In this document: positions 19,520 to 52,509 of the stretch, one piece after another
How the letters are laid out: every line of letters begins with the position of its first letter
Position numbering within the stretch: position 1 is the stretch's first letter
Source of the DNA: Macrostomum hystrix
Lineage: Eukaryota > Animalia > Platyhelminthes
DNA length: 64,000 nucleotides
NCBI GenBank assembly: GCA_950097015.1
Contig: CATNEN010000001.1
Coordinates: 4,030,001-4,094,000, forward strand
Reading direction: 5' to 3'
The notes under the pieces: model-generated
Databases searched by the model: none
What the model was told of the DNA's origin: nothing
What the model saw: the letters and a program-made list of their open reading frames with translations, nothing else
Made by a program: the position numbers and the translations under genes

Positions 19520-20771
19520 GCGCTGGTCCTCTCCACGCCATCAGATTGGATTTGGCCCAAGCAGGCGCCAATTCTACCGTCGCTGGAATCGGTGTCGAGG
19601 ACCATTCGCACATTCTCATCGTCAACGAATTCTGGGTAAGCTAACACTTCGGTAGACATCATCCGAGTTTTCAATGACTCAAATGCTTCGTCGTGCACTA
19701 CACTCCATTTTTCTTGGAAGTTTTGGATATTCTTCCGTGTAAGTTGAAACAATGGGTGGGCGACTTCGGCATAATTTTTTACAAAGCGACTATAGTAGTT
19801 GCACAGACCTAGGAGACTTCTTAGTTCCTTTACGTCTTTCGGCTTCGGCCAAGTCTTGATTGCCTCAATCTTGGACTCGTCAGTACGAATTCCTTCAGTG
19901 CTAATCACATGACCTAGATATTTTAGTTCTTGATGAAATAGATTGCACTTTTTCGGTCTCAGCTTAAGTCCTGCTGTAATCAACCGTTGGAAAACTTTCT
20001 TTAAATGTGCCAGATGTTCGGCAAAAGTTTTCGAGTAAGTGACAATATCGTCAATATAGGACATCGCAAATTTATGCTGTATACCCAACAATACTACGAG
20101 TAAATTCATTAATCGCTGAAAAGTGCCCGGAGCATTAGAAAGACCTTGGGCCATATCTTCATACTCGAATTGGCCCCTAGTTAAGGTAGAAAATGAGGTC
20201 ATAAAGTTGTGCTCTTCTTTTATAGGCACTTGCCAATATCCGGAATTTAAATCTAGGCTGCTAAAGTATTGACTACCTGATAGATAAGAGAAAGTTTGGT
20301 GAATATTAGGCAACGGATATGGCACATAATTGACACGTGAATTTAGCACTCGAAAATCGCTGACTATTCTAATTGTTCCATCTTTCTTAGGTACTATTAC
20401 TAAAGGTGTTGAATAGGTAGAATAGCACGGGCGAATTAAATTTTTGGCTAGCATATCGTCAAGCTGAGCATCCACTTGCTTTTGAAGGTGTGGTGGAATT
20501 CTTCTCGTAGGAATTCTCACCGGAGTCTCATCCTTCAGGGATATTTCGTGGGTGACCAAATGAGTCAATCCCATGTCAAGCTCATGCTGAGAAAATGCCT
20601 CTCTGTGCTCTTTGATTAGATCAATTACAGATTTTTTCTGCTCTTCAGACAGATTCGGTCCAAGACTGACCTCTTCTATCCAAGCATCTTTAACAGTCTG
20701 AGTCTGATTAACCTTCACTGTGGGCTCGGATTCAGCTTGTTTTGAACTCTCGAAATAGTCCAATTCCCTAG
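19520..20771 (-). pseudogene. Gypsy-A reverse transcriptase and start of RNase H (3'-truncated)
   Basis: VPKKDG, DFR.LN, LDLNSGYWQ, GLSNAPGTFQ, YIDD, LGLCNYY and LDTDSS. Joins in frame (KARE|LDY) to the segment at 40909 once the Polinton is removed. Confidence 0.93.
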
Positions 20772-21138
20772 AGTAGTAGGGGTTATGTGCACTCTGCCGC
20801 AGGATTTTCCGTGGAAAAGCCACGGGGCTCAGTGTGTAAACATAGGCGCCCATGTAAATGCATTGGTGGATTCTGCCGCAGGGAAAGCCGTGGCAGTTCC
20901 GGGGAGGCCCAGTCGGATTTGCTAAAAATAGAAACAAGGGAAGTGTACATTACTGACCCACTTTACAAAGCATGCCACAAGTATATTCACTGTTCACTGT
21001 TCGCTGCATTACGTTCCGCACAATAATTTTAATGCATAGAGACATGAAATTTCATATCGTGCGTTTCTATGGCTGGAGTAACCTTGGGGTTAGTGAGTGA
21101 AAATGCATTGATGTACTCTGCCGCAGGGAAAGCCGTGG
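20772..21138 (+). repeat. left TIR of Polinton-2
   Basis: Reverse complement of 40531-40908 with scattered substitutions and small indels. Confidence 0.95.
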
Positions 21139-21332
21139 GAGTTCCGGGGGGTGGGGAGGTCCGAGGCTGATTTGTAAAAAAATGTGGGTTAGTGGGAACT
21201 CGCGGACCATGTTTTACTATAGCTGTATGTTTGCGGCAATGGTTTAGTCTATATAAGTACCAAAAAATTGATTGATTCACGTGGAGCCGAAATTTTGTTT
21301 AAACGAGATAATTAATTCTGTTTAAGTTTGTC

Positions 21333-22100
21333 ATGGACATCTGCGAAGGATATATGCTGCAAATACAGGAATATGAAGGAGTGAAATTCATTGCTATCAG
21401 AAAATTTTACCGACATGGCAGCACTGCGAGTTTGAAACCTGGAGTCCCCGGTTTCAATTTGAACATCCGGCAATGGCAGAAGCTCAAGGAACTGAAGAGA
21501 TCGCTTGTCATGGCTGCCTTGGACAACCAGCCGAAAGTTGTACAACTTGGCTTTGATAAATTCATTGAGGTGAAGGACAGCATCATATGGCTAAAGCGAC
21601 TGCCCGAGGACTGCTGCGAAGAGTTTCTTAAGCGGAACACCGTGCCGCTGACACCACCGCTGTGGCGGAAGCTGTGGCAGTACGCGGATTGGATTGACGG
21701 GCAGCTATCGGCTCGACGTGAGATGTCAGATATGTACGAGCTGGGGCCAGGATCTTCCTCGGACAGCATCAAAGGCGAAGACGGTGCTGGTGACAACGCA
21801 GACGAAATCAAACCTGCACTGAAGATGGAAGATTCGGACGGTGCTACTGCTGCTGATGAAGCTGCAATGTCGTCCAATCTGCAAATTGATACGGAGTTCG
21901 CCACTTCAACGCCTTTGCCACTTTCAAAGGCTGTAGCTGGAGCCATTCCTCAGCAAGACACTGATCTACAGGAGGACCCAGTCTGGTACCAATTCCGACC
22001 TCAAGCGGCTGCAGCTGAGAATGCTAGGAAGCGCAAGCAGCCGTCGTTTGCTCTACGTAGATTGGATGCCATGAAGCTGCCCAAACTGCGCTTCGACTGA
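21333..22100 (+). CDS. PC4/p15-like (ssDNA-binding transcriptional coactivator) domain protein
   Basis: IQEYEGVKFIAIRKFY...LKPGVPGFNLNIRQWQKLKE resembles the PC4 core (DIRE.Y...E.KPG.KGISL..EQW..LK). Intact 255 aa; TATATAA at ~21250. Confidence 0.8.
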   Translation: MDICEGYMLQIQEYEGVKFIAIRKFYRHGSTASLKPGVPGFNLNIRQWQKLKELKRSLVMAALDNQPKVVQLGFDKFIEVKDSIIWLKRLPEDCCEEFLKRNTVPLTPPLWRKLWQYADWIDGQLSARREMSDMYELGPGSSSDSIKGEDGAGDNADEIKPALKMEDSDGATAADEAAMSSNLQIDTEFATSTPLPLSKAVAGAIPQQDTDLQEDPVWYQFRPQAAAAENARKRKQPSFALRRLDAMKLPKLRFD

Positions 22101-22212
22101 ATGCGGACCCTCGGACACTAAAAGCAACATTTTTATCCATACTTTTTTTTCAAATTTTTTGAAAAAATATGTGCTGCTTGTGCGTTTCCAACATCTTAAG
22201 AATAAATAAATT

Positions 22213-24662
22213 ATGAAAATGTTTGCCTCATTGTTTCTGAAAATGGAAAAAATTTACTTTAACCCGAATCAGCCAGCGAGTTATTGCAGTTCTTCAAAGC
22301 TTCAACATGAACTGAGAAAAAGAGATGATCACATCGGGGTTAAGGGGATTGAGCAATGGCTAAGTCAGCAGCCAGTGCATACTCTACATAAGCCGGCTAG
22401 AGTTCGATTTCAAAGGGCGCCAATAATAGTAAGAGCCATTGATGATCAGTGGGAGTTGGATCTGGTGGAAATGATTCCGTTTGCCAAATATAATCGCGGG
22501 CATAAATACATTCTTACATGTATAGATGTTTTATCTAAATTCGCTATGGCCAGAGCTCAGGGGCCAATTTCATAATACACTGCTAACGGTTATTTAGCAG
22601 CTGCTAAAGGCGGTTTGGTTTCACGAAGCAGATCTATGTCTGTGTCAATGTGTCAGAGCACTGAGCTTACTAGAGTACATAATGGTAGGCGAGGGATCAA
22701 CAGTGAAGCCCGCCCACTTCTTCCGAGCAATATTTGTCTATGGCCAAGACCACTTGTGCGGAGTCATGGAACCACTGGTAGGTCAGCAGTTAGCAGCTGC
22801 TAAGAAGCAACTGCTATTTAGCTGTTGCGGAAAATCGATTTCACGACGAACTGCTAAGTTGGACAGAAACCTTAGCAGCCGGTTAGTGCCATAGACAAAC
22901 TTAAAAGCGGTAGAGTAAGGAGCTCACATAAAGCTAGAAAGAGACAGAACGATTTTTGCCTGCCTCTGCTTGTCTCCACCAAATTTGTTCGCCTTTTGCG
23001 ATCGATTGAAAGCGGCTGTGGCAGGAGGCAAATTCGCACCGAGTACTGGCGGTATAAGCCAATCAAGGCAAGGAAAGATGCTGTCACCAAGTAAAACTGC
23101 TCCAGGGAATGGACGCCAATTGTCGACTTGAAAGGCTCGATAGAGATTGCTGTTGCGCAGAACCCTAGCGTCGCTGACAGGCCATGATGAGTTGCAGTAA
23201 AAAATGTATGATCAGGACCACACACGAGAAGAACGTTCAAGGAGTGCTGCCCTTTTCGGTCCACAAACAGGTTCTCGTCCACGACAGGTTTTTTAATGGG
23301 AATCAAAGTACCATCAGCGGCTCCGCACACAGACGGCATACCAGCAATGTCGTAGAATCGTTGTGCAAGGCCCTGGGGGTCAGGCCACCTGACCGTCTCA
23401 TGGAACAGCTCCGCGTTAATTGCATTGGCCACGCGTCTCACAACTCGACACACTGTTGACTCCGACGATCCGTGGGCGTCTCGGATCACGTGGTAGAAGC
23501 TGTTGGTCGCAAAAAACCGCAGGGCAGTCAAAGTCTGCTCACGTGAACTCAAGGCGCAGCTTCGGTTGGTATCGTGTTCCAATTGAGGACCAACCCGTTC
23601 CAGTAGCAACTCGACAGTTTCCGCATTCATTCGAAAGCGCTGGCGGAAATCAAGGTCCGCGTCTAAATTTACTGTCTCTAAATTCTCGTGGTCTTCGTTG
23701 GTTAAGTTGGTAGTCAACGAGGTTAAAGTCATCAAGAAAGTCCATCTTAGCCTGTTCCGAGGGATGCTCAAATTTAACCGCGAATTCCTAACCTCTTTAG
23801 CAGACTGCTACTTTCATGAAACCGAAAAACATTTCTGCTGCTAAATCGGGGGTTCATGCCATAGACACTTCACTGGTAACAGTGGTCTCTCCACTCTCTT
23901 CACCCTCCACAGAGCTTTAAAAGCGCAGCAGAAGTGCAATCAGCGTTTGAGAGCATGCTGAAGAGCTCAAAGCGGCAGCCACGCACCGTCCGCACGGATC
24001 AGGGAAAGGAGTTTCTTAACACAATATTTCGCCAGTTCTGCATAGACCGCGGGATTCTGGCGTTTCCAACAAACAGTGAGCACAAAGCTGCTGTAATAGA
24101 AAGATGGAATCGAACTTTAAAAAGCAAGATGTGGCGTTATTTTACTCACAACAGCACTCTACAATGGCTTGATGTGCTACCTAAACTGGTCAAGTCCTAT
24201 AACAATACATTCCACAGAAGCATCAAGACTACACCAATGAATGTTTGCAAAGAAAATGAGACTGACATCTGGATGAATCTTTACGATGGGAAAGCGATTG
24301 AGACAGTTAAGAAGCTGAGAAAACCGAAGTTCAGTGAAAACCAGTCTGTACGAATTTCAAATGCTCCCAGACTCTTCAGAAAGGGATACATGGCTAACTG
24401 GAGTGAAGAAGTGTATACTGTAGTGTCTAGAGCTCCAAAGCATTATCCGTATGTGTACCAGATTCGAGACATGAAGGGTGAAGATATTCGAGGCCTCTTT
24501 CATGAGCATGAGCTGCAAGCTGTTCCGGACTCCCAGCGGCTGTATGTGATTGAAAAGATTCTAAAGACTGAGAAGCGGAAGGGAAAGATTCGCTATCTCG
24601 TAAAGTGGGCCGACTACAACTCGACTGGCTGGGTGGATGAGAAGGACTTAAGAAAGGTATAG
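22213..24662 (+). pseudogene. Polinton retroviral-like integrase with C-terminal chromodomain, interrupted
   Basis: WELDLVEM, YILTCIDVLSKF, RTDQGKEF, KAAVIERWNRTLK and YVIEKIL...YLVKW..Y...W. Split by the insertion at 22558-23909. Confidence 0.93.
22558..23909 (-). mobile_element. PIF/Harbinger transposon remnant with HARBI1-like transposase (ORF 22872-23771)
   Basis: FRQRFRM, LRFFAT.S, GAADGTLIPI and DRKGQHSLNV motifs; frameshifted near 23180. One end starts GGGCCAATTTCATA; flanked by CAGAGCT direct repeats. Confidence 0.85.
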
Positions 24663-24699
24663 ACATCTAAGTTATTCGATATTTTAATATTTTGATTTT

Positions 24700-25511
24700 G
24701 AGGAATCAGCAGCATCGTAATAAACAGTGAGCATGCAGAAGGTTCTTCTAGTGACTTTAATTTTCGCCTGTCTGCACCTATATACTTGGATCGAAATGTG
24801 GACTATGAGGCAGGTCTGGCTGAAATCCATCTGCCTACTGCATGGCTCAATGTTGACGAGCCTTACTGCTTCACAGTCTCAGATGTAAGAGAGCATGAGG
24901 CCCTGGTTCTTCAACCCGGACGCTTTGACAGAGTGGAGGAGCTGGTGGAGCGGTTGAACGAGCTACTAGTCAACTCTGAGTCACTGTTCTTTGATGCCAT
25001 GAGCGATAGAGAGTCTGAGATGGAGGCTGATGAATCGGGCCTGATGGCTCGCAGCAATAAAGATTTTGGGATAAAGTTTGAAATTCAGAATCAAAGAACA
25101 GTAATGCACAACAATACCGCACGAGCAGAGTTGTATCTTCCTCCAAGCAAAATCCTGCAGTGGTTGGGATTTGGAAACCAGTCAATCAAAATCCCACCTG
25201 GGCGCCACGTGTCAAGCTGTTGCATCGGCTGTCCGCCCACCAACCTGGTCAATGTGCGCTGCAGCCTTGTTGAGTCAACAAGCTGCAACTGGGACTCCCT
25301 GCTGCGAACTGTGAACATCAGTTCTAATGCTGAATGGGGCTGCTACTTCAGCAAAGTGTTTAAGAAAACACTGTTCTTCCCAATCCAGAAAACAAATTTT
25401 CTACACAGCATTCGAATTCAACTGCGGGATAAATTTGGTCACCCTCTGACTGCTCAGAGCTGCAGTCCTGTTTTGCTCACGATTCAGATCCGGGAGAAAC
25501 TTATTCGATGA
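24700..25511 (+). CDS. Polinton minor capsid protein (penton)
   Basis: SSDFNFRLSAPIYLD...YEAGLAEIHLP and C-terminal SLLRTV...SIRIQLRD.FG.P patterns, plus position before the hexon. True start unclear and possibly mutated. Confidence 0.8.
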
Positions 25512-25894
25512 ACTATCAGCAGCTGATCCGGCAGTACTCTGGAACTCGAAATGGAAGCGATAAATCTGCGCCCTATGGGTGCGGAAGTTTTCCAGGGATT
25601 ATGACATATCAACCTCCTCCAGCAACTTCACCAGCACATGCATCTCAGTTGGCCTCGGCTGGCAAAAGCGTTAGCAAAAGAAGACAGTTGAATGCTAAAG
25701 TTTCTAGTAAAAAGAGAATACAGAAGACACCTCGCCAAAATGGCAAGAAGGGGAAAAAATCAAGGAAACGGAAAAATGCAGGTAGAAAGAAACCTAAGAA
25801 AGGAGAGAGCAAAGCAAAGGGCAAAACGGTAAGCAAGAGGAAGCGAAAAGTCAGCAGGAAAACGGTGAAGCGCGTGCTGGACTCTTTGTCGTAG
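25508..25894 (+). CDS. small Lys/Arg-rich protein, putative DNA-condensing core protein
   Basis: Very basic C-terminal half; start overlaps the penton stop; lies between penton and hexon. Confidence 0.65.
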   Translation: MNYQQLIRQYSGTRNGSDKSAPYGCGSFPGIMTYQPPPATSPAHASQLASAGKSVSKRRQLNAKVSSKKRIQKTPRQNGKKGKKSRKRKNAGRKKPKKGESKAKGKTVSKRKRKVSRKTVKRVLDSLS

Positions 25895-25896
25895 AC

Positions 25897-27162
25897 ATGG
25901 CTTATGGATTCAACCCAAGGCTCGATTTGTTCAAGGCTCCTGCGCTGCAGACTGCCATTGACAAATCCTCCTATCTCGATATTCACCCCGTGAACTCAAT
26001 TGCTGCAAATGCACCCATCGAATTCGATTGCCACCTATCAGCTGACGAATACACCGATCTATTGAATTCTTTCCTGTACATTCGCTGCCGCCTAGTCCGA
26101 CTGGATGGGGGCTTGCTGAGGGAGAATGTTCTGAACGCTGAAGGAGAGCTGACAGAGCGCCGAGACAGTGATGTGCACCCTGAAAACTTCGTCCTGTCTA
26201 CGCTCTTCTCTGATGTCATTGTGAGCATTAACCAGCGAGTTGTGTCCGGGGGAGACCAACTCTATCCCTATCATGCCTATTTCAAAGCTCTCATGAGTTC
26301 CTCAGACGCCCAGCAGCTGAAGTTCTACCCCGCTGGATTCCTGCAACCTGACTCCGCTGCAGAGGCACACATGGAGAGCCACAGGCAGTCCCGCTGGGTG
26401 GAGTATGCCGGACCGTTGCTCAGCGACATCTTCCAGTGCCCCATGTTGCTGCTGAACAACCTACACCTGCACATCAAGTTGGTGCCCAGCGACGCTGCAT
26501 TTGCCATCAGAACCCCGGTCACAAACAACACAGCCTACCGCATGGAAATCTCCCACTGCATCCTGCATCTCTGCCGAGTCAAGGTGGCTTCTCACATCAG
26601 CCTAGCCCATGAGCAGGGACTGATCAACCAGAATGCGCTCTATCCTATGGAGCGAGCCGAAATTCAGAACTTTATTCTGCCCCAGGGAATCCAGTCGAAG
26701 AACATTGAAGGCTTTACCCACGGAAAACTCCCAAAGTTCATCATGCTGGCTTTCGTGAGCCACCGAGCCTACAACGGGAATCATCACACCAGCCCCTTCG
26801 AGTTCCAGAGCTTCAACCTCAGCCAGCTAGCTCTAAAGAAAGGCGGGGAAACCATGTGCCACGGTGCATTCACACCCGAAAACAACTCATTTGTGCGAGA
26901 GTACTTGCACTACCTGAAAAGCTGCCAGTCTGCCAGCCCCACCAACTCGGTCCCTTGGATCCCCTATCAGATCTTCTCCAACGACAACACCGTGTTAATG
27001 TTCGACCTCACACCCGAGGGAGCAGCCCTGTGGTACGGACAGAAAGAGGGAAACCTGCGGCTGGAGATTCGGTTCCGACAGGCGCTTGACGAGGCCGTGA
27101 CTCTGATTGTCATGTGCCTGTATGACTCTCTGATTGAAGTCACCAAGCATAGGGAAATTTAG
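25897..27162 (+). CDS. Polinton major capsid protein (double jelly-roll hexon)
   Basis: LDLF..P..QT.I...Y.DIHP...PIEF...Y.DL.NSFLY N-terminus, YPY.AY, LP.FIM.AFV...A.NG...SPF.F and G.LRLE.RF; intact 421 aa. Confidence 0.93.
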   Translation: MAYGFNPRLDLFKAPALQTAIDKSSYLDIHPVNSIAANAPIEFDCHLSADEYTDLLNSFLYIRCRLVRLDGGLLRENVLNAEGELTERRDSDVHPENFVLSTLFSDVIVSINQRVVSGGDQLYPYHAYFKALMSSSDAQQLKFYPAGFLQPDSAAEAHMESHRQSRWVEYAGPLLSDIFQCPMLLLNNLHLHIKLVPSDAAFAIRTPVTNNTAYRMEISHCILHLCRVKVASHISLAHEQGLINQNALYPMERAEIQNFILPQGIQSKNIEGFTHGKLPKFIMLAFVSHRAYNGNHHTSPFEFQSFNLSQLALKKGGETMCHGAFTPENNSFVREYLHYLKSCQSASPTNSVPWIPYQIFSNDNTVLMFDLTPEGAALWYGQKEGNLRLEIRFRQALDEAVTLIVMCLYDSLIEVTKHREI

Positions 27163-27182
27163 CTAGATTTTTCATAATAATT

Positions 27183-27698
27183 ATGAAAACTTTTCAGATG
27201 TTTAAACTTGCCAGAAGCTTTTTGCCCCTTAGAAACGTTTTTATAGTGTCTCTAAATTTGAATAGTTCTAATAATGCTGAGTTAGAATTTCATTTGCGGA
27301 GTTACCTGAATGAGAAAACATATAAGAGCAAATTTATTTTCCTTTTGTTGCATCACAGCTCCTTGTCAGGTCACTGGGTGGTTTGCGACGTCAATTACGG
27401 GAATTCTGTGGAGCTTTTTAATTCCCTTGGCTGGGACTCGAAAACTTTAATGATTATTCATGATTTACTGCAAGTAGCCCTGGGTTCCCCGCTTCGTTTG
27501 AGCAGCAATGTGGATCGAATTCAAAGCTGTGACTCTGTCAAATGCGGTCTCTTCTGTCTTTATTTTACTTATCAGAAGTTTCAATTCAAACGGTCATTTA
27601 AGTGGGTTCTGCGACAACTGCATGCAAAGGAAAAGAGCCACCTGAATGACAGAATGCTTCGGCAGTTCGAAGCCAGCCTAAGAAAGAGAAAGTTATGA
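27183..27698 (+). CDS. adenain-like cysteine protease
   Basis: GHWV, FNSLG and IQ...S.KCG.FCLYF catalytic motifs. Confidence 0.88.
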   Translation: MKTFQMFKLARSFLPLRNVFIVSLNLNSSNNAELEFHLRSYLNEKTYKSKFIFLLLHHSSLSGHWVVCDVNYGNSVELFNSLGWDSKTLMIIHDLLQVALGSPLRLSSNVDRIQSCDSVKCGLFCLYFTYQKFQFKRSFKWVLRQLHAKEKSHLNDRMLRQFEASLRKRKL

Positions 27699-28384
27699 AA
27701 GTCAGCTCTACAAATTGGCTAAAGCCGACTAAGGAAACCAGTGCGAATAGAACATGCTATGATGCCCGCCTGCGGCAGGGAAGCTGCATGATTGTCAGCG
27801 GGCCAACCAATGCTGGCAAGACAACCTTCGTGAAGCAGCTAATTCAGTACAGGGATGTCATGTTTGATACGATGCCTGAGAGAGTCCTGTGGTACTATGT
27901 GGTTTCGCAGACAGTGCACTCTGAGCTGAGCAGCCTGGGAGTGCACCTGCAGCAGGGATTCCCCAGCAACATTGAGGCGGCTCTAAGACCCAATGACCTG
28001 ATTGTTTTTGATGATTTGATTGAAGAGACTTCTAGCTCTGCTGCGATGCGAAATGTATTCACCAGAATCGCTCATCACTTACCCTGCTTTCTGGTAATGC
28101 TGACCCAGAATGTATTTTTTAAAGGAAAAGAGTTGCGAACGATGAGTCTGAATGCGATGTACTTTGTCATCATGAAGAACCCCAGAGACCAGCTGCAGAT
28201 TGCAGCACTGGGCAGGCAGTGCTTTGCAGAGAAGCCCGGCTTTCTGCTGTCTGTGTTTAAGCATGTGACCGCTCAAGGCAGGGGAGCTTACCTGCTTCTG
28301 GATTTCCACCCATCCACTCCCGATGAGCTGCGAGTGCGAGCGCGGATCCTGCCCAACCAGCGCCCCCACCTGGTTTATACCTAA
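27695..28384 (+). CDS. FtsK/A32-like DNA packaging ATPase
   Basis: Walker A GPTNAGKT, Walker B LIVFDD, TQN, SLNA.Y and KNPRD..QI..LGRQ. Confidence 0.93.
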   Translation: MKVSSTNWLKPTKETSANRTCYDARLRQGSCMIVSGPTNAGKTTFVKQLIQYRDVMFDTMPERVLWYYVVSQTVHSELSSLGVHLQQGFPSNIEAALRPNDLIVFDDLIEETSSSAAMRNVFTRIAHHLPCFLVMLTQNVFFKGKELRTMSLNAMYFVIMKNPRDQLQIAALGRQCFAEKPGFLLSVFKHVTAQGRGAYLLLDFHPSTPDELRVRARILPNQRPHLVYT

Positions 28385-28423
28385 GAATGGCAAATACGCT
28401 GTTTTCCATATCTATACTCAACA

Positions 28424-28771
28424 ATGGACACGCTTTGTTTTCATGAAAGCATCTTTGCAATTCTTGCATCAGCGAAATACACTGTCAGCTTCAAGCGCTT
28501 GCTAATCAAGCACGGTCCGAAAGAAGTGCGAAAATTCCTTGTTGAAGCCTGTTACAACCTATTGGAAAACAACCTGACTTTCTCTCTTATTGAAAAGGCT
28601 GAGCTGGCAAAGTCCAAGCAGATTATTCGAAAAATCCCAGAACAAAGAAAAGAAGCTGACTTGCTAAATCATAATTTCATAAAAATTCTCCCCACTCTGC
28701 TGAAGCTTGTGCATAGAAGAAAGAAGGAAAATGAACAAGTTCTCCGAGATGGTTCTGATTCCCAAGTCTGA
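28424..28771 (+). CDS. conserved small Polinton protein
   Basis: E.CYNLL.....L...K..L.K.K..IRKI pattern recalled from small ORFs next to Polinton ATPases. Confidence 0.55.
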   Translation: MDTLCFHESIFAILASAKYTVSFKRLLIKHGPKEVRKFLVEACYNLLENNLTFSLIEKAELAKSKQIIRKIPEQRKEADLLNHNFIKILPTLLKLVHRRKKENEQVLRDGSDSQV

Positions 28772-28931
28772 GTATGACATGCTAATGAGTAATGTGAAGC
28801 CCAATGAGTCTGCAGAAGACATTGCGGTAAAGCAGGCACAGATTAAATGTGATGATATATTGTATGCCGACGATTGCCCAGACAATGTAAAGACAGCCAT
28901 GTACCAGAACGCTATGAAAAGTTTTTCATAG
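28731..28931 (+). pseudogene. N-terminal fragment of a conserved Polinton protein
   Basis: MVLIP..EY...IL....PD..K...YQ pattern; stops early. Confidence 0.4.
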
Positions 28932-29281
28932 TTTTTCATCCGAGCTACTCGGACTCAGTCAGGGCTGCCCGTCGCTTCGTGGCTATGCTACATCGCAGAG
29001 TGCCTGCTCAACTGCTGCCTCATCAGTTCATTTGTGTACGAATTAAAACTATTACTGCACATGGAAAGATTGACTTGCCCAACCCCCAATGCTTGACAAG
29101 CCTCCGTGATGTGCTACCGAATGCTAGATATGAGCCAGAGTCCTTTTCTGCTTTGATTTGCAAACTGGACTTCTGTAAGTGCCAGCTTTTTCACAATGGC
29201 TCATTCGTTCTCAGTGGTGCGAAGACAGTGAACATGCTGATTGCCGATTTTTCCAAGCTTCACCGTTTTCTGTGCCAGTAA
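28874..29281 (+). CDS. TATA-binding-protein (TBP)-like domain, single repeat, probably 5'-truncated
   Basis: ARYEPESFSALI...QLFHNGSFVLSGAKT matches the TBP repeat signature YEPE.F.GLI....LIF..GK.V.TGAK. Confidence 0.8.
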   Translation: MPRQCKDSHVPERYEKFFIVFHPSYSDSVRAARRFVAMLHRRVPAQLLPHQFICVRIKTITAHGKIDLPNPQCLTSLRDVLPNARYEPESFSALICKLDFCKCQLFHNGSFVLSGAKTVNMLIADFSKLHRFLCQ

Positions 29282-29661
29282 TAAACTTATGTTTCAACAG
29301 TTAAATAAGAAGACGACGACGGCTGAACAAAGTGTAACGTTTTTCATGCAATCTGCCACTTGTTTAAAAAGTGTGCATTTTAACCAATTTTATTTTGAAA
29401 ATCTGACTTCGATTGGTCTTTCTTGAGCATTTTGCTATGCTTGAGCATAGCAAATTTAAACAGATCACCACTAAAAGCATGGGAAAAGCACACCTACCAC
29501 CACCACCCAGATTATGTACTCCTAAAACAAATAAAACGAACACGAGCAAACAGAAATAAGAAAAGTGAGTATTATTTAGATAATTAATGATAATTAATGG
29601 ATAATGGATAAAAACGAGTAGCAAAATTAGCAAAAAAAGAAAATAACAACTGTCGCTTCAT

Positions 29662-32600
29662 TCATTCTGCATTGCTAAAATAAGGTGCGTTGAAACAAAA
29701 TAGAAAAGCCTGACTAATGTGATGCAACTGATTCCAACATGACTTTGGCAAGTTAGTATTGAAATAGTCTAATAGACTTTTCGGTCTACCCCTGATCGTT
29801 AGCTGAAAGTGGCCGAACGGAAGACTTGTGTTCGAGCCAGTCCACGCTCGCTTGTCCTCCCAGATACTGAGAGCGAGCTTGCGTTGCTCAATGGTGAAAA
29901 CGCGATGTTTCTCACTTCCAATTCGACGAATAGTGAGCGACAGCTTTGAAGCGTCCCTGAAAATCTTTACGTAGTCATCGTGGGAGACTTCATTCTTCAG
30001 CACGCTTCGTTGGATACCTTTTGCTTTTGCTTTGCTAGCCGTCGAGCTTTCGGCGAGGAAAGAATAGAGCTTGGGCCTCAGCAGCACCCACTCAATCTGC
30101 CGCACTCCACCAGCTTCATCTTTAATGCAGCCTAGCCTGGCCTTCAGTTGATTCGAGAAGAGTGGGTGATTAGATAAAAAATTGGATGTGTCCAAGAGGC
30201 CTTCGGCATGCAGGATTGGCAGCACTTCTCTCTGCAAGTTAAGATTATCTAAGCTCAAAAACAGCGAGTCTGTATCGCCACCACAAACACGAACTCTCGC
30301 TCCATCACGGAATTCTAGCATGGGTTTTATTCTGTCGTAGTAAAGTTGATACATGATGATCTTGGAGCGATCTAGAACACACTGCCCCATGAAAAGTGGG
30401 CGATCAAGAGTTACTTCACGCTTTTGAAGCTCGAAGATGCTGAGTGACGGTGTAATGATGGTGAATGATGTGACATTTGGTTGCGAAGAAACAGTCTTGA
30501 CCTTTTTCTTGTCATTGCACACTCTGATGTCTCGCGGCTTGCGTACGTTCTCCATTGTTTTGCCAAACGGAATTATTTTTCAGCTTGTAGAAATCCTTCT
30601 CGAAATCATTTTTCGCCATAGAGCGCTTCTCACTATTCATCTTAATGTAGTCCGCGAAGACAGGTTCTTGCCTGAATTCGATCATCCTTTGGAGCTTGTG
30701 CAACTTCATCCCGTGCGATAGATAGAATCGGAGGGCTGAAGAGTGCAGTACATAGGAAAATTTGTTGTGGCACGTGAGCATTAACTTTTGTACTCCACGG
30801 TAGTGCGCAGCGGTAGGATCTACAGTGGTGTTCGCGTCGGGCTGCTGATGACGATGATAATTGTCGTGCTGAAGCAGTGCCCATAATTCTCGCATGTACT
30901 GTGGAAATTCATCGAAATCCGGACACCTTTTCTCTGGGGCGAATGGAAGATCCTCCGTTGCCGAGTGGATTTCGGCAGGGTAGAGCAAATCCGCTTTGAC
31001 AAGGTAGCCGATTGGAGCATCATCGTCCAGGGCGAGAAAGCGGCGCTCAGACCATGAGTACAGCTCCTCTTGACTGAGCCAGCGAAAGCCACCAACAGGT
31101 AGGGGCATTGTGAGCGCATGACCGTAAAGGTTATTAGCATCAACAGCTAGTAAACTCCTACCTGCTGTTTCATCATCATCATCATCATCATCATCACTGC
31201 TTTCGCTCTGGGCATGATGTACATTGACAAAAGACATTCCGCCCCGAATTCCTTTCTCAAACATTTTGTACATCTCGAGATCGGTTAGCAGTTCAATCTT
31301 GACTTGAGAAGACTTTAGCGCTGAAGCAAATGAGAGGCCTGGGGTTGACACAAAATGCACCGGATCTAGCTTGTCTTCCTGCAAACTCAGCCTTCGAAAC
31401 CCTTCAAAGATATCTGCAAGTTGCCTGATGTCCAGCTCCAAGTAGCATTGCATGTAATCGCGCAATGTTGTGGATTCGAACTCAGTCCATGCCTTCTGCG
31501 CATGCCGATACTCCGCCTCGGTACAGTGGCTGTTGGTGAGTCGATTAAAAAAACTGTCTACTTTTGGTAGTTGGCGATCATCGAGCACATTCAAGTTTGA
31601 GAGATAATCATAAGGGAAAACTCCCTTACTGAGCAGTACATGCCTTGAAAGATTTGGATACTTTGATCGCATCGCATTAGTGATGGGACAGTTGTCCTCC
31701 GGCAAGTTGTCCTCCGGCTCGAAAGTTCTTGATAAGCTGAGAAAGACTACTGTGTAGGAATTGCAGTGAATCGATGAACTGCATCGTGAAGAACAGGGGC
31801 TTCTTCTTACCATCTTTTTCGTACTCATCAATTAGGAATTCCACTCTCATTTAGAGATAAGATTCAGCAGTTTGTGGTATAACACACTTTCCAACCTGGC
31901 ATGTCGCCTAGGGCGCTCGAAAAAATCAGGTGCAGGTCATAACCACGAAGATTATGCATAACGATGGGCAAGAAGCGCCGCCGCAGTTTAGCAAGCTTGT
32001 TGCATGAAGCACAGGCAGCTCCTCTAAAATCTCCGCTCAAATGATCATGATCGCAGTGTTTGTCAGATGATGAGGTAAAAGCTGCACTGCAATAGTGGCA
32101 CTGAACGGATTCAGCAAAGTTGCGCCTATCTTCTTCCATGCTCCTGTCTGCTTTTTGGTGGCTGAACTCCGTATTCCACCCATAGATTCCACGAGCAAGT
32201 TGTTCGAGTGAGGCCAAAAACTGCTTCACGACAGAATTCGGATTGGGACCGCTGCAGAGGAAAACATCCTCACTCGGCCTCCGAATGTCGCTGCTCATAC
32301 CCTCTCTTGGAATAACAATGTAGCCAGCAGCTACAGGCAGATGCTCAGTTAACTTGGTGATACCAACTGCTCTGTCAGGCTCTATTAGTTCACATGGGGT
32401 GTTCAGAGCTTCAAAATCTGCGTAGACAACAAATGGGGGACTGATAGTCTTTTCCCAAGCCATGAATTGCATTGTGTTGCTATTTGCATCAGGCATGCGC
32501 TCCATGATGCTGGGTTTCAGCTGAGGATTGCAGCTGTCTCGATGCTGCTCTAACTCCTCCTGGGATCGAAACGGAGAAATGCACTTCTCACACCATTTGC

Positions 32601-33510
32601 GATTCCTCAGACCTTTTTTGCTGTTCAGGAGCCGGTACAGGTTCGAAACTGCACACCAGTGTCCAGTCCCACAATTCTCAACATCATTATCATCATCATT
32701 AGCATAATCAGAGCATGAGTTGCGAAGCAAGAGTAGAGGAATAACCTTGCGAGAGGCACAAAGCCCAGGAAGTGGCTGGCGAATGACATAGGCCTCATCA
32801 TGCTCCCAGGTAAAAACTGTGAAACAGATTTCGGGATTCTTTTCTTCTATAACTTCTAAATCGGAAATTGCGATTGGTAAACTGATGCCGCTCAGATCGA
32901 TTTCACCCAGCCATCTGCTGTAAGTTGTTAGTCGATGACAGGACTTCATCACACCAGGATCACTGCTGTGCAGGTAAGCAAGACAGGCAAATAGAAAGCA
33001 ATAATTTCCATTGCTCGGTGGGTTCATGATGGCCTTCTTAACTACTAGCCGATTGGGCACAGTAAAATTAGCACATCTTCCTCGATAGTAGCGAATGCGA
33101 TCAGTGAGGGCAGAGCTCAGATCAAAATAGTTGATTTGTTCAACTATCCAACCACTCCCATTTGCATTGTAGGTTGGATCTTGCGTTCCAGCTCAGAAAA
33201 CTGCTGCAGCCACCACAATTCAAAGTCTCTAAGATCAGTAAGAAGCTCGAGACTGCATGCGAACCACTTATCCTCCGCATTAACTACCATTGCTTCTTTG
33301 ATTCTCACCATTCTAATGTTGAACTTAAGCTGCGCTCGAACAGAATTGTTCTCGGATGAATCTCATCTCATCTCAACAGCCTGTAGCACTGCGAACTTAG
33401 TAGATGTTAAAAAGTGAAATGGATCGAGACCTCTTGAGGCTGGAGTGAAGCGTCTTACCTGCAGTATGTCATCATGCGCACTGGCCTGAACAGCCGAGCT
33501 GAATTGAATG
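29662..33510 (-). pseudogene. pPolB of Polinton-2 with Endonuclease VII-like insert, frameshifted
   Basis: ORFs 31864-33060, 30512-31831 and 29662-30555: VYADFE, DHDHLSG..GAAC..CN, HNLRGYD, KGVFPYD, DANNLYG, KLKNNS, GDTDS and RPKLYS. The N-terminal part to ~33510 has stops. Confidence 0.94.
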
Positions 33511-33609
33511 CCTGTGTGAATCGATCATGTTTTTGTTTAATATTCGTGTTTCATTGGACAGTTATAAATAAGTTATTTCCTCTAATTCTATCTCCTCATA
33601 GTGTCAATC

Positions 33610-33757
33610 AACGAAATCGGTGAATCAGGAATCAGTGAATCAGTGATTCGATAATTCGGATTAAGTGAATCGGTGAATCAGGAATCGGTGAATCAGGAAT
33701 AGGTGAATCAAGAATCGGTGAACCGGGAATCAGTGAACCAGGAATCAGTGAATCAGC
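33610..33757. repeat. (GAATCGGT/GAATCAG)n minisatellite upstream of pPolB
   Basis: Repeated GAATC-based 7-8-bp units read directly. Confidence 0.85.
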
Positions 33758-34753
33758 GGATGGGTTTGTTATGACTACTTAGCTTGTACTTTTAGAGGGA
33801 TAAGTCTACTTTGCTGGCTATGCTGAATTCATTTGAACAAATATTGCATGAACTCACCGGTTGGCTCGAGCTCGAAAGTGAAATTGGTGGACTCATGCGA
33901 CAGATCACTTGCTGCTGCTGCTGATGTGGTGGCTGGTGAAGTGTCTCTCGACATTATCTCGGTTCTTTTTACGAGTATTACACAGTTGGAACCATTTTAG
34001 ATCAGATGGGGGAATTTGCTGAAACGCATATTTTGTGATGATTTTATTTGGAAAAGCTAATATCAGTAACATAATTTGTGCATATACGAGTACTAAACAT
34101 TCATATTATCGAAAGTTGCTAATCGGGTCTGGTCGTTACATACTAAAATTTCGGGTCCAAAACTTTTATAGTGTGCATACATTTGTTCTTTCTAAATCAA
34201 TAAATCTAAATTAAATATCTCAAAGCCACGAACTTTTCCTAAATGTAGCGCTTCAGTATTCTTTCAGCATTATTAACTGATACAAAATAGGTATCAGTTT
34301 CTCTTTTTATTAAAAATATGCGATGCGAAAACATTGGAAACAGAAGTTAATTAGAGACGGAGATTATAACAAATAACGCAGAGCCAACCAGAATCAATCC
34401 CAATCCTCATCCTTGCATTAAACACATGACACCCTAGCACAGGTTGATCAATCAGCACTACATAGATGCATAAACTTTAACTTTATAGACATTAGATCGT
34501 TAGATGTTAAAAATTATGAAATTTGAAATTCGCGTTTGAAAATAATTTATGGGTCTTGACTTAATTTACAAAAAATATTTCCAGATACACAATTATTAAC
34601 TCTTACAATCACCATGAGATGCCATCAATCTGCGCTCATAAAGCAATACGTTAATAAAAAATAAGATCCTCCAATCCTCCTAGGTAAAAAGCGCCGTTAG
34701 TATCAGTAAAATCACTCCATTTTCTTCTACTTATTTCAAACTTGGTACTAAAA

Positions 34754-35680
34754 TTAAGAGTTGCTCAGGCGAATGCGGAAAGTCCCCCCCAAGCCAATCC
34801 AATATTCGCCATTAACACTGCTAGGCAGAACCAGCTGGATGCAGATGGGTGCCGGCTGCTGCAGTGCTTCATTAGCGGTCGCGGCCGCAGGCTGAACCTC
34901 AGTCGGTGGTGGTGTTGGTGGTGGTGGTGGAGGCACAGGACCCGACTCAAGCTCGCGGATAACGTCAGGCAGACTGACTTCTGCCAGCATCCTGGCACGC
35001 TCCATATTTTTCCCGGAAACAGGGATTGCATGTTGCTGCTGCTGCTGCTGCTGCTGTTCGATTACTTCGTGCTCATCAAGGTTCTCGAAAAATGCGGTGT
35101 CCAGCTCATGCAGCTCGAAGTTAGGAGTGTCAGCGTCAATAAGGGGAGCTCCGACATCGCCGTCGAGTAGAGCAGCAGCAGCAGAAGCAGCATCAGCATC
35201 AGCATCAGCAGCAGCAGCGGCGGCTGAAAGAACGCCAGGGGTCGAAGAATCTGCTGTTGCAGTAGCGGTGCCGGGCAGAGAGGGAGTGCCGATGTCTATA
35301 GCAGCAGCAGCAGTAGGCTGGGCGTTGAGCCGAACGCCAGTGCTGGTGACTCGACCGCATCAATTAGATATTACTTGACTCAATGAGCTCTCCGGCTCTG
35401 CCGCCTTTTTGCCTTCCTCTTGATGCGCCACTTCCTGAGCAGTAATGCGCGCCCGCTCGTGATCCTCAGCAGAGCTCCAGTTGACAGTAGCATGATTTTT
35501 ATGCCGCTTTATTTGACCTCTAACAGTAAAGAGCTCAACCGACTGGCATTGGTGACATAGTAGCCATCGGGTGACATTGCAGCCTTGTTTCACTACATGA
35601 TGCTTAATTCCACCGAGCATACTAGTGTTGCAGGTTGCACACACTTCATGAACGTAGGATGGGCACCGGGGACGACTCAT
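34754..35680 (-). pseudogene. Cys/His-rich plus acidic/polyQ/polyP protein with one internal TGA
   Basis: ORFs 35360-35680 and 34754-35005 are in frame and joined by 118 open codons after a single TGA. Confidence 0.5.
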
Positions 35681-36011
35681 AGCTTACATGGACTCAACAT
35701 TTATTCAAAGTGACTCTTGTGAAGCTCGCACCGGCGGGACACAATGCCTGTGTGGTATGAGTCAGACCAGGCCTACGGGCTAAGGTCTGCGATGCCTCAC
35801 ACCTGCAGTCGTTTTTTGAGCAGGCTTGGCAGGAAGGAGACCTGTGCCCTCGGGTGCAGGAATCCTCTCCACGTTGTCCCGTCAGCTGACCCATGGGTAC
35901 ACGTCCCGCGAGTGTTCAAGGCTGACCCTAGGGCAGCTGGACAGAATGGGCAACAGCGCTGGACGACCCATCCAGGGCCTCTGGCCAAACTGGGTACCTC
36001 TAGCCCTGGCT

Positions 36012-36635
36012 GGAGGGAAAGGTGTCACCCTTTGACCTTAACAGGGTATGCGGCCAGTCCGCAGCGTTCGTGCACCTGTGCGTGATCAGGTACCTCTGGC
36101 TACGGCTCGGAGGGAAAGGTGTCACCCTTTGACCTTAACAGGGTATGCGGCCAGTCCGCAGCGTTCGTGCACCTGTGCGTGATGAGGTACCTTTGGCTAC
36201 GGCCCTGAGGGAAGGGTGTCACCCTTTGACCTTAACAGGGTATGCGGCCAGTCCGCAGCTTTCGTGCATCTGTGCGTGATCAGGTACCTCTGGCTACGGC
36301 TCGGAGGGAAAGGTGTCACCCTTTGACCTTAACAGGGTATGCGGCCAGTCCGCAGCGTTCGTGCACCTGTGCCTGATCAGGTACCTCTGGCTACGGCTCT
36401 GAGGGAAGGGTGTCACCCTTTGACCTTAACAGGGTATGCGGCCAGTCCGCAGCGTTCGTGCACCTGTGCGTGATCAGGTACCTCTGGCTACGGCTCTGAG
36501 GGAAGGGTGTCACCCTTTGACCTTAACAGGGTATGCGGCCAGTCCGCAGCTTTCGTGCACCTGTGCGTGATCAGGTACCTCTGGCTACGGCTCGGAGGGA
36601 AAGGTGTCACCCTTTGACCCTAACAGGGTACGCAG
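36012..36635 (+). repeat. 97-bp tandem monomers in the LINE 5' region (~6.4 copies)
   Basis: GGTGTCACCC recurs at 36021, 36118, 36215, 36312, 36409, 36506 and 36603. Confidence 0.95.
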
Positions 36636-36819
36636 TTTTGAACTGCGGGTCTGGCGCTGCTTTCTGCCGCCCTCTAAGGCCCAAGGTCTCGCCGTGCCGA
36701 AGGGCGCTTGGCCGGGGAGTAGTCCGGTCTTTAGCGGCTCCTTTTTTATTTCTTTTCTCTATTCTTGTGAGTCACCGCTCACCCTCCTCCCGCTTTAAGG
36801 AGGAGGGTGAGCTTCTTCT

Positions 36820-38375
36820 GCCCAATCTTATAAAGAAATCGAAACCGGGAATCCCCCGGCTGCTCCGGCCGCTACCAACAGCGCCAACGCCGCCCCATCG
36901 GAGGCTACTGGACCCGCTGCCGCCCTGTCTGACGGGAGACCTGCCCCCCGGACCTATAGGCATCCGGTCCCAGGAAGCCCGTCACGGCCGAAACCAGCGC
37001 CGCAACGAGCGGCGTCGGCGTCAGCGCGAAAGGGAGGCCGCGGTTCGGCAATCCGCGGAGGTGGTGCCTCAAGTGGGCGAAGGTGCGGTTGGGCCGAAAG
37101 GAGCCACCGCCACCTCAGCCCCTCGGGAAACTACCTCCGCTGGGTCGCCACCCGCTGAGCCCTCCAGCAACACAAACACCGGAAACGTGGCTGGGCCATC
37201 CGGAGCCGCCACACATGCAACGATGGCCAGCGAGGCCCCGGCCAGCCAACCATCTACCAAGGCCAAGGAGTTCTACGCCTCCAAGGCCAGTGCCATGCTC
37301 CAACCCGCGGTCATCGTTTTTGAGGAAGAGAAAGACCTCACGGCCGAGCAGCTCGACAGTGCCTGGCGCATCATCGACGCTGCGCTCATTGACCAGCTCC
37401 TGGCATGCCGCCCGGTGAGCGTGGTCAAATCGGCCAAAACGGAGCCGTCCGAGTTGCATTTTCATCTGGTGCAACTCGGAGGAAAGCAGCCGAGCTCTAC
37501 GCGAGCTTCTGCCACAGCTAAAGTGGCCTAAGAAGCTCGGCAAGCTCACCTTCGCTAGCGAAGGCCAACGCCTTAAGACCGAGCGCTTCCGCGTTTGGAT
37601 CCCGAATGGCAGTGCCATCAAATCTGGGGATCAGCTTAGGCAGATTCTGCTGAAGCTGCACCCCGACCTTGAGGCCAACGGGCTCCTTCACCATGCCTCC
37701 TCCCGCAAGGAGACGGGGTTCACGGTGATCCTGGGGCTCTCGGATGCGTGGACCAAGCGCCTGCCGCCAAAGTCCATCATTCACCTCGGTCTAACTCAGC
37801 TGACCATCCTCCGCTGCGAGGAGCGGAAAGCTGGGGAAGCCAAAAAAGCCAAAGCTCCTGAGCCCGGATCCGGGGCGCAAGCTCCTCTGGCGAAGAAGCA
37901 GAGGCAAACGGTGGATCCCCACACCGGTAAAGCAGCTCGCGCTGCCGAATCCGGACCTCGCGACCACAGGCCTGCCAGGTCCACCCGGAGATCTGGGCTG
38001 GTCCAGCGTGCGCTGGAACAAGCCAGGACCCTCAGGGCGCACCTCGAGCGGGTCCACAAACCGAACGCTCCACCGAAGCAGCTAGTGGGGCAGGAGCGAC
38101 GAGGAGAGGCGCCGACTGACTCGTTTGATGCTAGCAACCACCAGGCGGATCGCGCCATCCACGTTGACCTGACCGACGAGGCGAGCCTGGGCAGCATCGG
38201 CGTCACGACGCAAAGGGACGGCGAGGGAGACACTCATGCTGGGCATATGTCCGCTGAGGGCTCCTCAGCCACCCTGACCGCCAGGGGCGCCGAGATTCCC
38301 ATGGAGCTATGCGAGCCTTCCATTTCCGAAAAGGAAGAGGAGGAATTGCTACGCGACTCCCCTGCGCGGCCATGA
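36820..38375 (+). pseudogene. LINE ORF1-like region, frameshifted
   Basis: Arg-rich and low-complexity ORFs (36533, 37725) whose stop overlaps the ORF2 ATG at 38372. Confidence 0.6.
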
Positions 38376-40470: not shown

Positions 40471-40530
40471 AACAAATTTGTAGCTTTTTTATTAAAAAGC
40501 CATATTTTCTTTCTGACCTCCATCGTATTT

Positions 40531-40908
40531 CCATGGCTTTCCCTGCGGCAGAGTACATCAATGCATTTACATAGGCTCCTATGTTCACTCACTAACCCCA
40601 AGGTTACTCCAGCCATAGAAAAGCACGATATGAAATTTCAGGTCTCTATGCATTTCAAATATTTGTGCGGAACGTAATGCAGTGAACAGTGAATATACTT
40701 CTGGCATGCTTTGTAAAAGTGGGTCAGTAATGTACACTACCCTTGTTTCTATTTTTAGCAAATCCGACTGGGCCTCCCCGGAACTGCCACGGCTTTCCCT
40801 GCGGCAGAATCCACCAATGTATTTACATAGGCTCCTATGTTTACACACTGAGCCCCGTGGCTTTTCCACGGAAAATCCTGCGGCAGAGTGCACATAACCC
40901 CTACTACT
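40531..40908 (-). repeat. right TIR of Polinton-2
   Basis: Inverted copy of 20772-21138 ending CTACTACT. Confidence 0.95.
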
Positions 40909-42979: not shown

Positions 42980-43014
42980 AACGGTTTATTATAGTTGTGC
43001 CTGATTGGATTTCC

Positions 43015-47032: not shown

Positions 47033-47148
47033 CTACGGGGTATCATTTCTTGCCGTTACACTCGCATTTCGCTCCTAATTCTGATCCGTGTGCCTGCCGA
47101 CTCATCCACCCGCCACTACCACCTACCCACCGCCGCCCCCGCACCCGT

Positions 47149-52506: not shown

Positions 52507-52509
52507 ATT

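Follow-up and report, generated by a model that had tools for sequence, protein, structure and literature searches.

A decayed Polinton of Macrostomum hystrix with a PC4/MOSUB-like gene and the remnant of a divergent TBP gene

Results

The window, by which we mean the whole stretch of 64,000 nucleotides analysed here (Macrostomum hystrix contig CATNEN010000001.1, positions 4,030,001 to 4,094,000), contains a Polinton that spans 20772-40908 and is nested within a Gypsy element (Table 1). Its inverted repeats start with AGTAGT at 20772 and end with ACTACT at 40908, and such AG...CT-ended repeats, flanked by a 6-bp target duplication, are those of Polinton/Maverick elements. Subtraction of two later insertions (Harbinger and LINE) leaves 13,971 bp, in agreement with the virus-like element of ~14 kb reported in a preliminary description of this DNA. 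The copy is decayed, with integrase, penton, polymerase, right repeat and TBP broken or interrupted, and is not an intact module.

Table 1. Features of the Polinton and of its insertions, in window coordinates.
Feature	Position	Strand	Remarks
Left target-site duplication	20766..20771	.	6 bp, CCCTAG; in Gypsy pol gene
Left terminal inverted repeat	20772..21138	.	Three copies of a ~25-nt repeated motif
TATA box TATATAAG	21250..21257	+	Canonical; 83 nt before PC4 ATG, ~110 nt inside left repeat
PC4/MOSUB-like gene	21333..22100	+	Intact, 255 aa; PF02229 E 6e-6, above cut-off
Integrase, 5' part	22213..22558	+	TAAGA 16 nt ahead of first ATG
Harbinger/PIF-type transposon insertion	22559..23917	-	DDE_Tnp_4; run X1-X3 contigs lack it
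Integrase, 3' part with chromodomain	23918..24662	+	
Probable minor capsid (penton) gene	24690..25511	+	In-frame upstream part without start codon in this copy
Probable core protein	25508..25894	+	Basic; from position and composition
Probable major capsid protein	25897..27162	+	L004 gene at same position 24% identical, E 1e-28
Adenain-type protease	27183..27698	+	Peptidase_C5 PF00770, E 6e-4
Packaging ATPase (P-loop)	27695..28384	+	TAAGA 16 nt ahead of ATG
115-aa ORF, function unassigned	28424..28771	+	3' of ATPase
Short ORF cut at deletion	28731..28931	+	Close contig of run X1 departs from window sequence at 28924
TBP remnant	28943..29281	+	Repeat 2, preceded by last helix of repeat 1; N-terminal ~79 residues of relatives' protein missing
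Probable protein-primed DNA polymerase B (pPolB)	29662..33480	-	At least 4 pieces; motifs read from sequence; start approximate
Acidic/Ala/Gln/Pro-rich frame	34754..35359	-	Best 39-aa stretch: 12 D/E, 0 K/R, 9 W/F/Y/L
Cys/His ORF	35360..35680	-	Two CxxC pairs; in frame of acidic part; 43 nt inside original right repeat
LINE retrotransposon	35724..40530	+	Endonuclease and RT, 97-nt tandem array; at inner edge of right repeat
Right terminal inverted repeat	40531..40908	.	
Right target-site duplication	40909..40914	.	

The integrase, which is split by an insertion, gives rve and chromo matches under the Pfam cut-offs and resembles the integrases of two of the loci described below (E 1e-35 for L004, 1e-27 for L001). 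Packaging ATPase, adenain and capsid genes are all present, the major capsid candidate being identified by homology and position only, with no Pfam match, while the gene at 24690..25511 is probably the penton gene, judged by its position and motif. The pieces of the broken, probable polymerase gene show visible polymerase motifs and match the gene of a neighbouring element, without a Pfam polymerase match. Gene order in L004 is that of the window (ATPase, two small ORFs, TBP); the small ORFs are equated across elements by their position, and pairwise comparison with those of L001 and L004 gave no significant match.

Adintoviruses (equivalent to Polintons/Mavericks; PMC8502044) share with this element the terminal repeats, the 6-bp duplication, the integrase with chromodomain, the ATPase, adenain, capsid and probable pPolB genes, a PC4/Sub1-like gene (MOSUB) next to a terminal repeat and, in the 'Oncoid' place upstream of PolB, a gene with CxxC. 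The PC4/MOSUB gene is already annotated in these viruses: MOSUB stands on a published adintovirus map, and in the figure's entire text layer no TBP label occurs. In the same paper (Starrett et al. 2021) the Fig. 5 legend alone names TBP, without discussion, within a non-animal section on MELD viruses with adintovirus-like PolB. A term search for TBP, TATA or PC4 in PMC11131425, 10.64898/2026.06.19.733378, PMC11161782 and PMC10748475 returned none. In a literature search that lay outside subscription journals and Repbase, we found no paper on Maverick/Polinton elements in Macrostomum and, among the matches listed, none that contained MOSUB or joined Polintons with TAAG.

The PC4 gene near the left repeat, noted before together with its TATA box, is confirmed, and both Pfam and the predicted structure point to a PC4 fold. 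The protein is predicted to hold tandem PC4 repeats (amino acids 1-127), an acidic linker and a conserved basic C-terminal motif, and among viral proteins adintovirus MOSUB matches its structure best (E 9.6e-6, TM 0.71). The tandem PC4/PUR fold, with two PC4-type repeats, is a prediction whose second repeat comes from a single model out of five (pLDDT 80.9, against 40-55 for the remaining four); by sequence, that repeat has a profile score under those of shuffles and an hhalign probability of 0.1%. Aromatic residues occupy the positions that presumably stack on single-stranded DNA; stacking by W89 of PC4 is described in the available part of PMC4350104. The beta-sheet plus helix fold is that of human PC4, with which residues 9-54 align, and the whole domain aligns to repeats I-II of PUR-alpha (PURA; TM 0.53-0.55, E not significant). 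Unlike PC4/Sub1, PUR-alpha and the proposed SSB of phage T5, the protein is predicted to have two repeats per chain; it has no N-terminal regulatory region, and its long tail is acidic but ends in a conserved basic stretch.

At the opposite end, the Cys/His and acidic parts described earlier are both present and form one reading frame, but a stop codon at 35360-35362 splits it, and the acidic patch lacks its own start codon. Searches with the Cys/His ORF found no homologue in Pfam (two matches at E 0.05-0.07), PHROGs or longer proteins, and in the Atlas only unnamed small-protein clusters with low recognition. The CxxC pairs and the position are those of an Oncoid/E1A-like protein, whereas LxCxE and CR1, which define adintovirus Oncoids (PMC8502044), are absent from the Cys/His ORF. 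The designation 'activator' is unsupported.

The TBP-like domain stands as far as similarity is concerned (ORF 28985-29281; PF00352 E 1.4e-8, best PDB match E 2e-13), but the copy retains only the C-terminal 55% of a two-repeat, 193-aa TBP that is whole in close relatives. Indeed, the remnant matches, from 28943, only residues 80-185 of one such relative (P0002; whole, 193 aa, 61% identical). The two-repeat saddle is missing from the window copy, and the model of P0002 is a full TBP saddle (pLDDT 92.7; TM 0.8, E 3e-15 against solved TBPs). Contigs of all four runs depart from the window sequence, on the upstream side, at 28942-28944, and the truncation is therefore particular to the window copy; judged from the sequence, its N-terminal part was lost by deletion. 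A natural single-repeat, homodimerising TBP was considered and rejected, since the relatives have two repeats and the break is a deletion.

Nine metagenome loci were found using an alignment of distant TBP relatives. In five of these (four independent) a whole TBP gene adjoins a Polinton ATPase or integrase gene, and several divergent relatives carry whole TBP genes of 169-193 aa. A word-based search with the remnant gave no candidate, and the remnant, capsid, TBP family, integrase and L002 PC4 likewise matched nothing when scanned against viral_contigs; in the same set the ATPase weakly matched three distant loci, none of which gave TBP or PC4 profile matches. Trees have long branches, and tests of a single origin of Polinton TBPs reject neither a grouping of the window clade with distant Polinton TBPs (p-AU 0.92) nor one with cellular TBP (p-AU 0.74).

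Residue positions are given in yeast numbering. Asn159 is replaced by Thr/Ser in 22/22 Polinton-type TBPs (window's clade 4/4, loci 6/6, their family 12/12), versus Asn in 100 of 102 others (archaeal-like 53/53, cellular eukaryote-like 8/8, other divergent TBPs 39/41), and Val161 is likewise Thr/Ser in the same 22. The acids of the TFIIB stirrup are retained, Glu188 in 22/22 and Glu186 in 20/22, and Phe190, Phe207 and Asn69 are mostly kept across distant elements. The canonical TATA-reading set of both asparagines, four phenylalanines and the specificity proline is incomplete: in addition to Asn159 to Thr, Pro191 is Ser/Thr, Phe116 is Tyr, and the first intercalating phenylalanine (Phe99) is replaced in the window's clade. 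The roles of these asparagine, phenylalanine, proline and acidic residues are as given in the available text of PMC12529657. When compared to cellular TBP (PF00352), Polinton TBPs thus keep the predicted two-repeat saddle (TM ~0.8) with Asn69, Glu186/188, Phe190 and Phe207, but are only 22-27% identical, have no N-terminal tail and are altered at Asn159, Val161, Thr124, Pro191 and Phe99/116.

Upstream of Polinton genes, a TAAGA box appears weakly enriched, lying within 60 nt of 9/25 genes versus 3.5 expected (p 0.003-0.007), or of 7/25 (p 0.046) once two boxes created by stop codons further upstream had been masked. In the window alone it precedes 2/7 genes (p 0.09-0.14) and in L004 only 1/8; in the window, the 60 nt upstream of the capsid, core and protease genes contain none. 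The distance to the ATG ranges from 10 to 47 nt. Ordinary TATA-to-start spacing is 25-31 nt, for which the box at the ATPase, 16 nt ahead of the ATG that the gene needs, is too close. TAAG also occurs upstream of the TBP gene, which lies in the presumed late block, in L001 and L002.

Discussion

We read the locus as a decayed Polinton of a family that encodes a TBP acting as promoter-specificity factor, a PC4-like SSB and an early Cys/His-acidic regulator, a joint reading to which we assign a probability of about 0.5. In whole family members, the divergent two-repeat TBP would likely be a one-protein specificity factor that binds a variant TATA-like box and brings TFIIB and RNA polymerase II of the host to the (presumably late) genes of the element itself. 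The Cys/His-acidic frame is likely an early regulator, and nothing links it to TBP. The window copy is a fossil, itself unable to run such a transcription programme; its decay is general and extends to integrase, penton and polymerase. The earlier proposal of a Polinton-supplied Pol II initiation factor is not supported for this copy, whose TBP is half deleted, and gains support at the family level, because there the TBP is whole, conserved in position and altered on its DNA face. We know of no mechanism described for the switching of capsid genes in animal Polintons, and, for the majority of these elements, of no observed particles; the DNA-face change common to this conserved TBP predicts a variant promoter.

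A close analogy is KSHV ORF24, the viral TBP of beta/gammaherpesviruses, as described in the available text of PMC12529657. Both herpesviruses and Polintons lack an RNA polymerase of their own and encode a TBP fold with a more polar DNA face; the TATTWAA late box of ORF24 is comparable to the variant box proposed ahead of Polinton structural genes. In contrast, ORF24 is large and multi-domain, is without the TFIIB-binding acids, contacts Pol II itself and requires five other viral factors, whereas the Polinton TBP consists of a core of 170-193 aa alone, with these acids retained and no extra domain. The Polinton protein would thus be a natural altered-specificity TBP that retains TFIIB contact, unlike the herpesvirus mimic.

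A more ambitious version of this scheme, which we think rather unlikely, is that animal Polintons across distant lineages use the minimal TBP, with its altered C-terminal repeat (Asn159/Val161 to Thr/Ser), like a sigma factor, to direct host Pol II to a TAAGA-type box, and couple replication to capsid expression together with a dual-use tandem PC4 and the repeat-proximal acidic activator. If true, no smaller viral transcription programme made from general factors would be known. It is likewise rather unlikely that the late-made TBP is instead a decoy or repressor, which would titrate TFIIB, NC2 or Mot1, block canonical TATA promoters (of host genes or of the element's early genes) or travel in the particle. 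The TBP gene lies in the structural block in the same orientation and has TAAG upstream in two loci, an arrangement unexpected of a late activator; several DNA-face residues differ although the stirrup is retained, and the TAAGA spacing at the ATPase is more initiator-like than TATA-like, TAAG being a start-site (initiator) motif in baculoviruses according to the available text of PMC9786725. Against this, the same DNA-face change recurs across distant elements, which is not random decay, and Phe190, Phe207 and Asn69 mostly persist.

The preliminary description had joined the three genes into one module, in which PC4, TBP and the Cys/His-acidic protein would serve as coactivator, TBP and activator of a private Pol II initiation complex at late promoters. 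All three genes do lie in one element, the acidic patch has the composition of acidic activation domains, and both repeat-proximal genes face inward, as do the end-proximal E1A and E4 of adenovirus. A tandem PC4 is directly upstream of TBP in one distant element (L002/L005, a single sequence), an order equally compatible with a link to transcription and with coincidence. We nevertheless consider the module improbable, since the adintovirus map shows MOSUB and no TBP label, PC4 was found in 0/5 TBP-bearing Polinton loci (a weak point, these being partial, 1.3-9.9 kb), the third gene gave no homologue in the collections searched and lacks LxCxE and CR1, and the PC4-like protein starts with the fold and lacks the N-terminal serine/acidic and lysine-rich region to which coactivation by human PC4 is tied in the available text of PMC9226532. 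That TBP is a host-acquired, drifting passenger or relic without a role, as its half-deleted gene in this copy, the long branches and the tree tests might suggest, is very improbable in view of the whole 169-193-aa genes in divergent relatives, their conserved position and common substitutions, and the equally broken integrase, penton and polymerase of the window copy.

Strand-displacement replication should need a single-stranded DNA-binding protein. The preliminary description had offered this role for PC4 as its alternative, and we rank it likelier than that of a coactivator, given the match to MOSUB and the missing coactivator-type N-terminal region. In our preferred reading the tandem PC4-like protein is likely an early protein that would coat the strand displaced in protein-primed replication, any transcriptional effect being secondary; the predicted tandem PC4 fold would make MOSUB a candidate SSB for such replication. 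A PC4-like protein of phage T5 is a proposed SSB in the available text of PMC8545432. A neighbouring Polinton carries a decayed PC4 orthologue behind a TATA box, upstream of pPolB.

Structure and decay of the Polinton

The Polinton is bounded by inverted repeats with AGTAGT at the left terminus and ACTACT at the right, flanked on each side by CCCTAG, and is inserted in the pol gene of a Gypsy-type element. Two later insertions have enlarged it. A 1359-bp Harbinger-type element interrupts the integrase, and contigs from three runs (X1, X2 and X3) pass over this insertion; the right repeat has a LINE at its inner edge, which an X1 contig lacks, position 35723 being fused there straight to repeat sequence. 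After subtraction of both, the element measures 13,971 bp, which bears out the size of about 14 kb first proposed.

The plus strand carries PC4, integrase, probable penton, core, major capsid, protease, ATPase, two small ORFs and TBP, in that order, followed on the minus strand by pPolB and a Cys/His-acidic frame. The integrase, penton, polymerase, TBP and Cys/His-acidic frame are broken, and this copy is therefore a fossil. A motif of about 25 nt occurs three times in each terminal repeat and is a candidate origin or enhancer site. A 15-nt tandem array, with an A/T-rich, TATA-like site beside it, lies just ahead of the polymerase gene.

Positions of features in the window and in two metagenome loci with TBP matches
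Sequence	Feature	Position	Strand	Remarks
Window	Second Polinton fragment	12135-19640		Divergent, decayed
Window	PC4 orthologue of second Polinton	12225-12696		Broken, after a TATA box; C-terminal motif retained
Window	Gypsy-type LTR element	19408-20771 and 40909-42985	-	pol gene hosts the Polinton
Window	Polinton	20772-40908		AGTAGT at 20772, ACTACT at 40908
Window	Inverted repeats of Polinton	20771-21138 paired with 40531-40909		
Window	Terminal-repeat motif, ~25 nt	20793, 20872, 21117; 40542, 40798, 40877		
Window	TBP-like ORF	28985-29281	+	
Window	TATA-like site	33563		
Window	15-nt tandem array	33615-33761		
Window	Young LTR retrotransposon	44561-53331		822-bp LTRs, 99.8% identical
Window	DnaJ-like ORF	46049-47032	-	Domain read by eye
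L001	Region with capsid-start-like fragment	2914-3908		
L002	Double-PC4 gene	215-742		PF02229 in two stretches, E 6e-16
L002	Polinton-type TBP	1387-1767		

The TBP of the window is half a gene

The TBP-like ORF matches PF00352 (E 1.4e-8) as well as solved TBPs, and spans a single repeat. An exhaustive search over 1.84 billion representatives gave 126 matches, among which P0001 (71%) and P0002 (61%) are the best relatives by a wide margin; Macrostomum lignano is the named source of two among the closest, which suggests that the host is a flatworm. P0002 is a whole protein of 193 aa with two repeats, and its model forms a TBP saddle (pLDDT 92.7, TM ~0.8). The window covers only its residues 80-185, the match beginning at 28943, and DNA contigs in all four runs, which come from one study, diverge from the window on the upstream side of 28942-28944; in the 24 of 39 loose-end rows listed, the loose ends measure 77-255 letters. 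A deletion, either in this copy or in its lineage, has therefore removed the first repeat. A near-identical X1 contig departs from the window at 28924, and one X2 contig, which is not independent, equals the window across the junction, reaching 28 letters past 28943, just short of what was counted as bridging. The preliminary description is partly confirmed: the element and its PC4 and TBP similarities stand, with the amendment that TBP retains one repeat only and that the integrase, penton, polymerase and Cys/His-acidic frame are broken too.

In P0001, the Macrostomum lignano gene model fuses an unnamed N-terminal region (residues 1-140) to TBP; this region is possibly a neighbouring Polinton gene joined by the gene caller.

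A Polinton-borne TBP family

Among the 126 matches, viewed in 116 rows after removal of over-long, repetitive and duplicate ones, many are proteins of about 170 aa that consist of little more than the TBP core and are neither archaeal nor canonical. An alignment of six of them, used as query, gave nine metagenome loci (L001-L009). TBP adjoins a Polinton ATPase or integrase in five (L001, L003, L004, and the close relatives L007 and L008), and L004 reads pPolB, ORF, ATPase, two small ORFs, TBP, ORF, integrase, penton, core, capsid, protease. In L002 and L005, which are one sequence, a double-PC4 gene lies immediately upstream of TBP, the L002 contig being too short for hallmark genes to appear; L006 has a TBP without gene context, and the TBP of L009 is cellular. 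In L001 the capsid gene follows a short stretch similar to its own start, as if by partial duplication.

Residues were compared in 124 aligned rows with groups assigned from the tree; positions follow yeast numbering. In the window's clade, the loci and the family of these loci, the second base-reading asparagine (159) has given way to Thr or Ser in 22/22 rows; Asn159 is retained in 100 of the remaining 102. Val161 is replaced by Thr or Ser in the same 22 rows, where Pro191 is mostly absent and the acidic stirrup is retained. In TBP, two asparagines bond bases, four phenylalanines intercalate, the acids make the contact with TFIIB, and the proline gives a preference for T at the first position (PMC12529657, available text). 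A shared alteration of the DNA face with a retained TFIIB contact is what would be expected of an altered-specificity factor acting via host TFIIB.

When constrained trees were compared with a free quick tree (48 rows), uniting the window's clade with distant Polinton TBPs gave 35.6 log units above the free tree and uniting it with cellular TBP gave 18.1. With neither joining rejected, these trees give no proof of a single origin.

The preliminary description had interpreted the element as a transcription-control module of PC4, TBP and an activator-like protein. This interpretation is partly supported. The robust part is that Polintons carry a family of TBPs whose position is conserved and whose DNA face is rewired, the window holding a truncated copy; a three-gene module is improbable. 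Our literature search found no characterisation of this family, only one figure-legend label (PMC8502044, available text).

The PC4-like gene

The PC4 ORF is intact (255 aa), matches PF02229 and aligns with human PC4 over residues 9-54. Three close relatives were found; residues 1-127 and a basic C-terminal motif are conserved, unlike the acidic linker. The best of five models contains two beta-sheet/helix repeats (pLDDT 80.9), the second undetectable at the sequence level, and resembles PC4 and PURA repeats I-II with non-significant E-values. Among at least 500 matches in a viral structure library, the sole significant one is MOSUB, a PC4/Sub1-like protein, of a Branchiostoma lancelet adintovirus (E 9.6e-6, TM 0.71); lower-ranked matches include two insect adintovirus proteins. 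A published adintovirus map places MOSUB beside a terminal repeat and bears no TBP label (PMC8502044, Fig. S2 text layer), so a PC4-like gene is already annotated in adintoviruses and may occur without TBP. In the available text of that source, TBP appears only in the Fig. 5 legend, and sections 3.2 and 3.4 discuss neither gene.

Between coactivator, as first suggested, and the alternative of an SSB, the latter is the better guess: the N-terminal region to which coactivation by human PC4 is linked (PMC9226532, available text) has no similar counterpart here, an SSB function has been proposed for a PC4-like protein of a phage (PMC8545432, available text), and the PC4-like gene of the neighbouring Polinton precedes pPolB. 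A dual role is possible.

The Cys/His-acidic frame

One frame runs through both the Cys/His ORF and the acidic/Q/P ORF, interrupted by a stop between them; it lies 43 nt inward of the original right repeat. It contains two CxxC pairs and a 39-residue patch in which 12 residues are acidic and 9 are large hydrophobes. Its position matches that of the adintovirus Oncoid genes, upstream of PolB (PMC8502044, available text), and the LxCxE and CR1 motifs that define this class are absent from it. Searches of Pfam, PHROGs, longer proteins and the Atlas found no homologue, and we saw no tie to TBP; the 24 ORFs scanned gave no match to TFIIB or to a polymerase subunit. Judged by its anatomy, the frame may plausibly have an early regulatory role.

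The TAAGA box

Of 25 genes taken from the window and six loci, 9 have TAAGA in the 60 nt upstream, compared with 3.5 in shuffles (p 0.003-0.007); the count falls to 7 (p 0.046) once two stop-codon-derived cases are masked. The window alone has 2/7 (p 0.09-0.14), its capsid, core and protease genes lacking the box in this range, and L004 has 1/8. Spacing is not constant, and at the ATPase gene 16 nt separate the box from the needed ATG, which is too near for ordinary TATA geometry. This spacing is nearer that of a start-site motif such as baculovirus TAAG (PMC9786725, available text). Given the weak, uneven enrichment, variable spacing and odd ATPase geometry, the TAAGA box is a lead, not a result.

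Neighbouring elements

In the second Polinton, a broken pPolB, about 45% identical to that of the first, follows PC4 in the same orientation; TBP and structural genes are absent from the part within the window. The Gypsy-type element adjoins this polymerase, giving at least three levels of nesting. The young LTR retrotransposon carries its DnaJ-like extra ORF behind pol.
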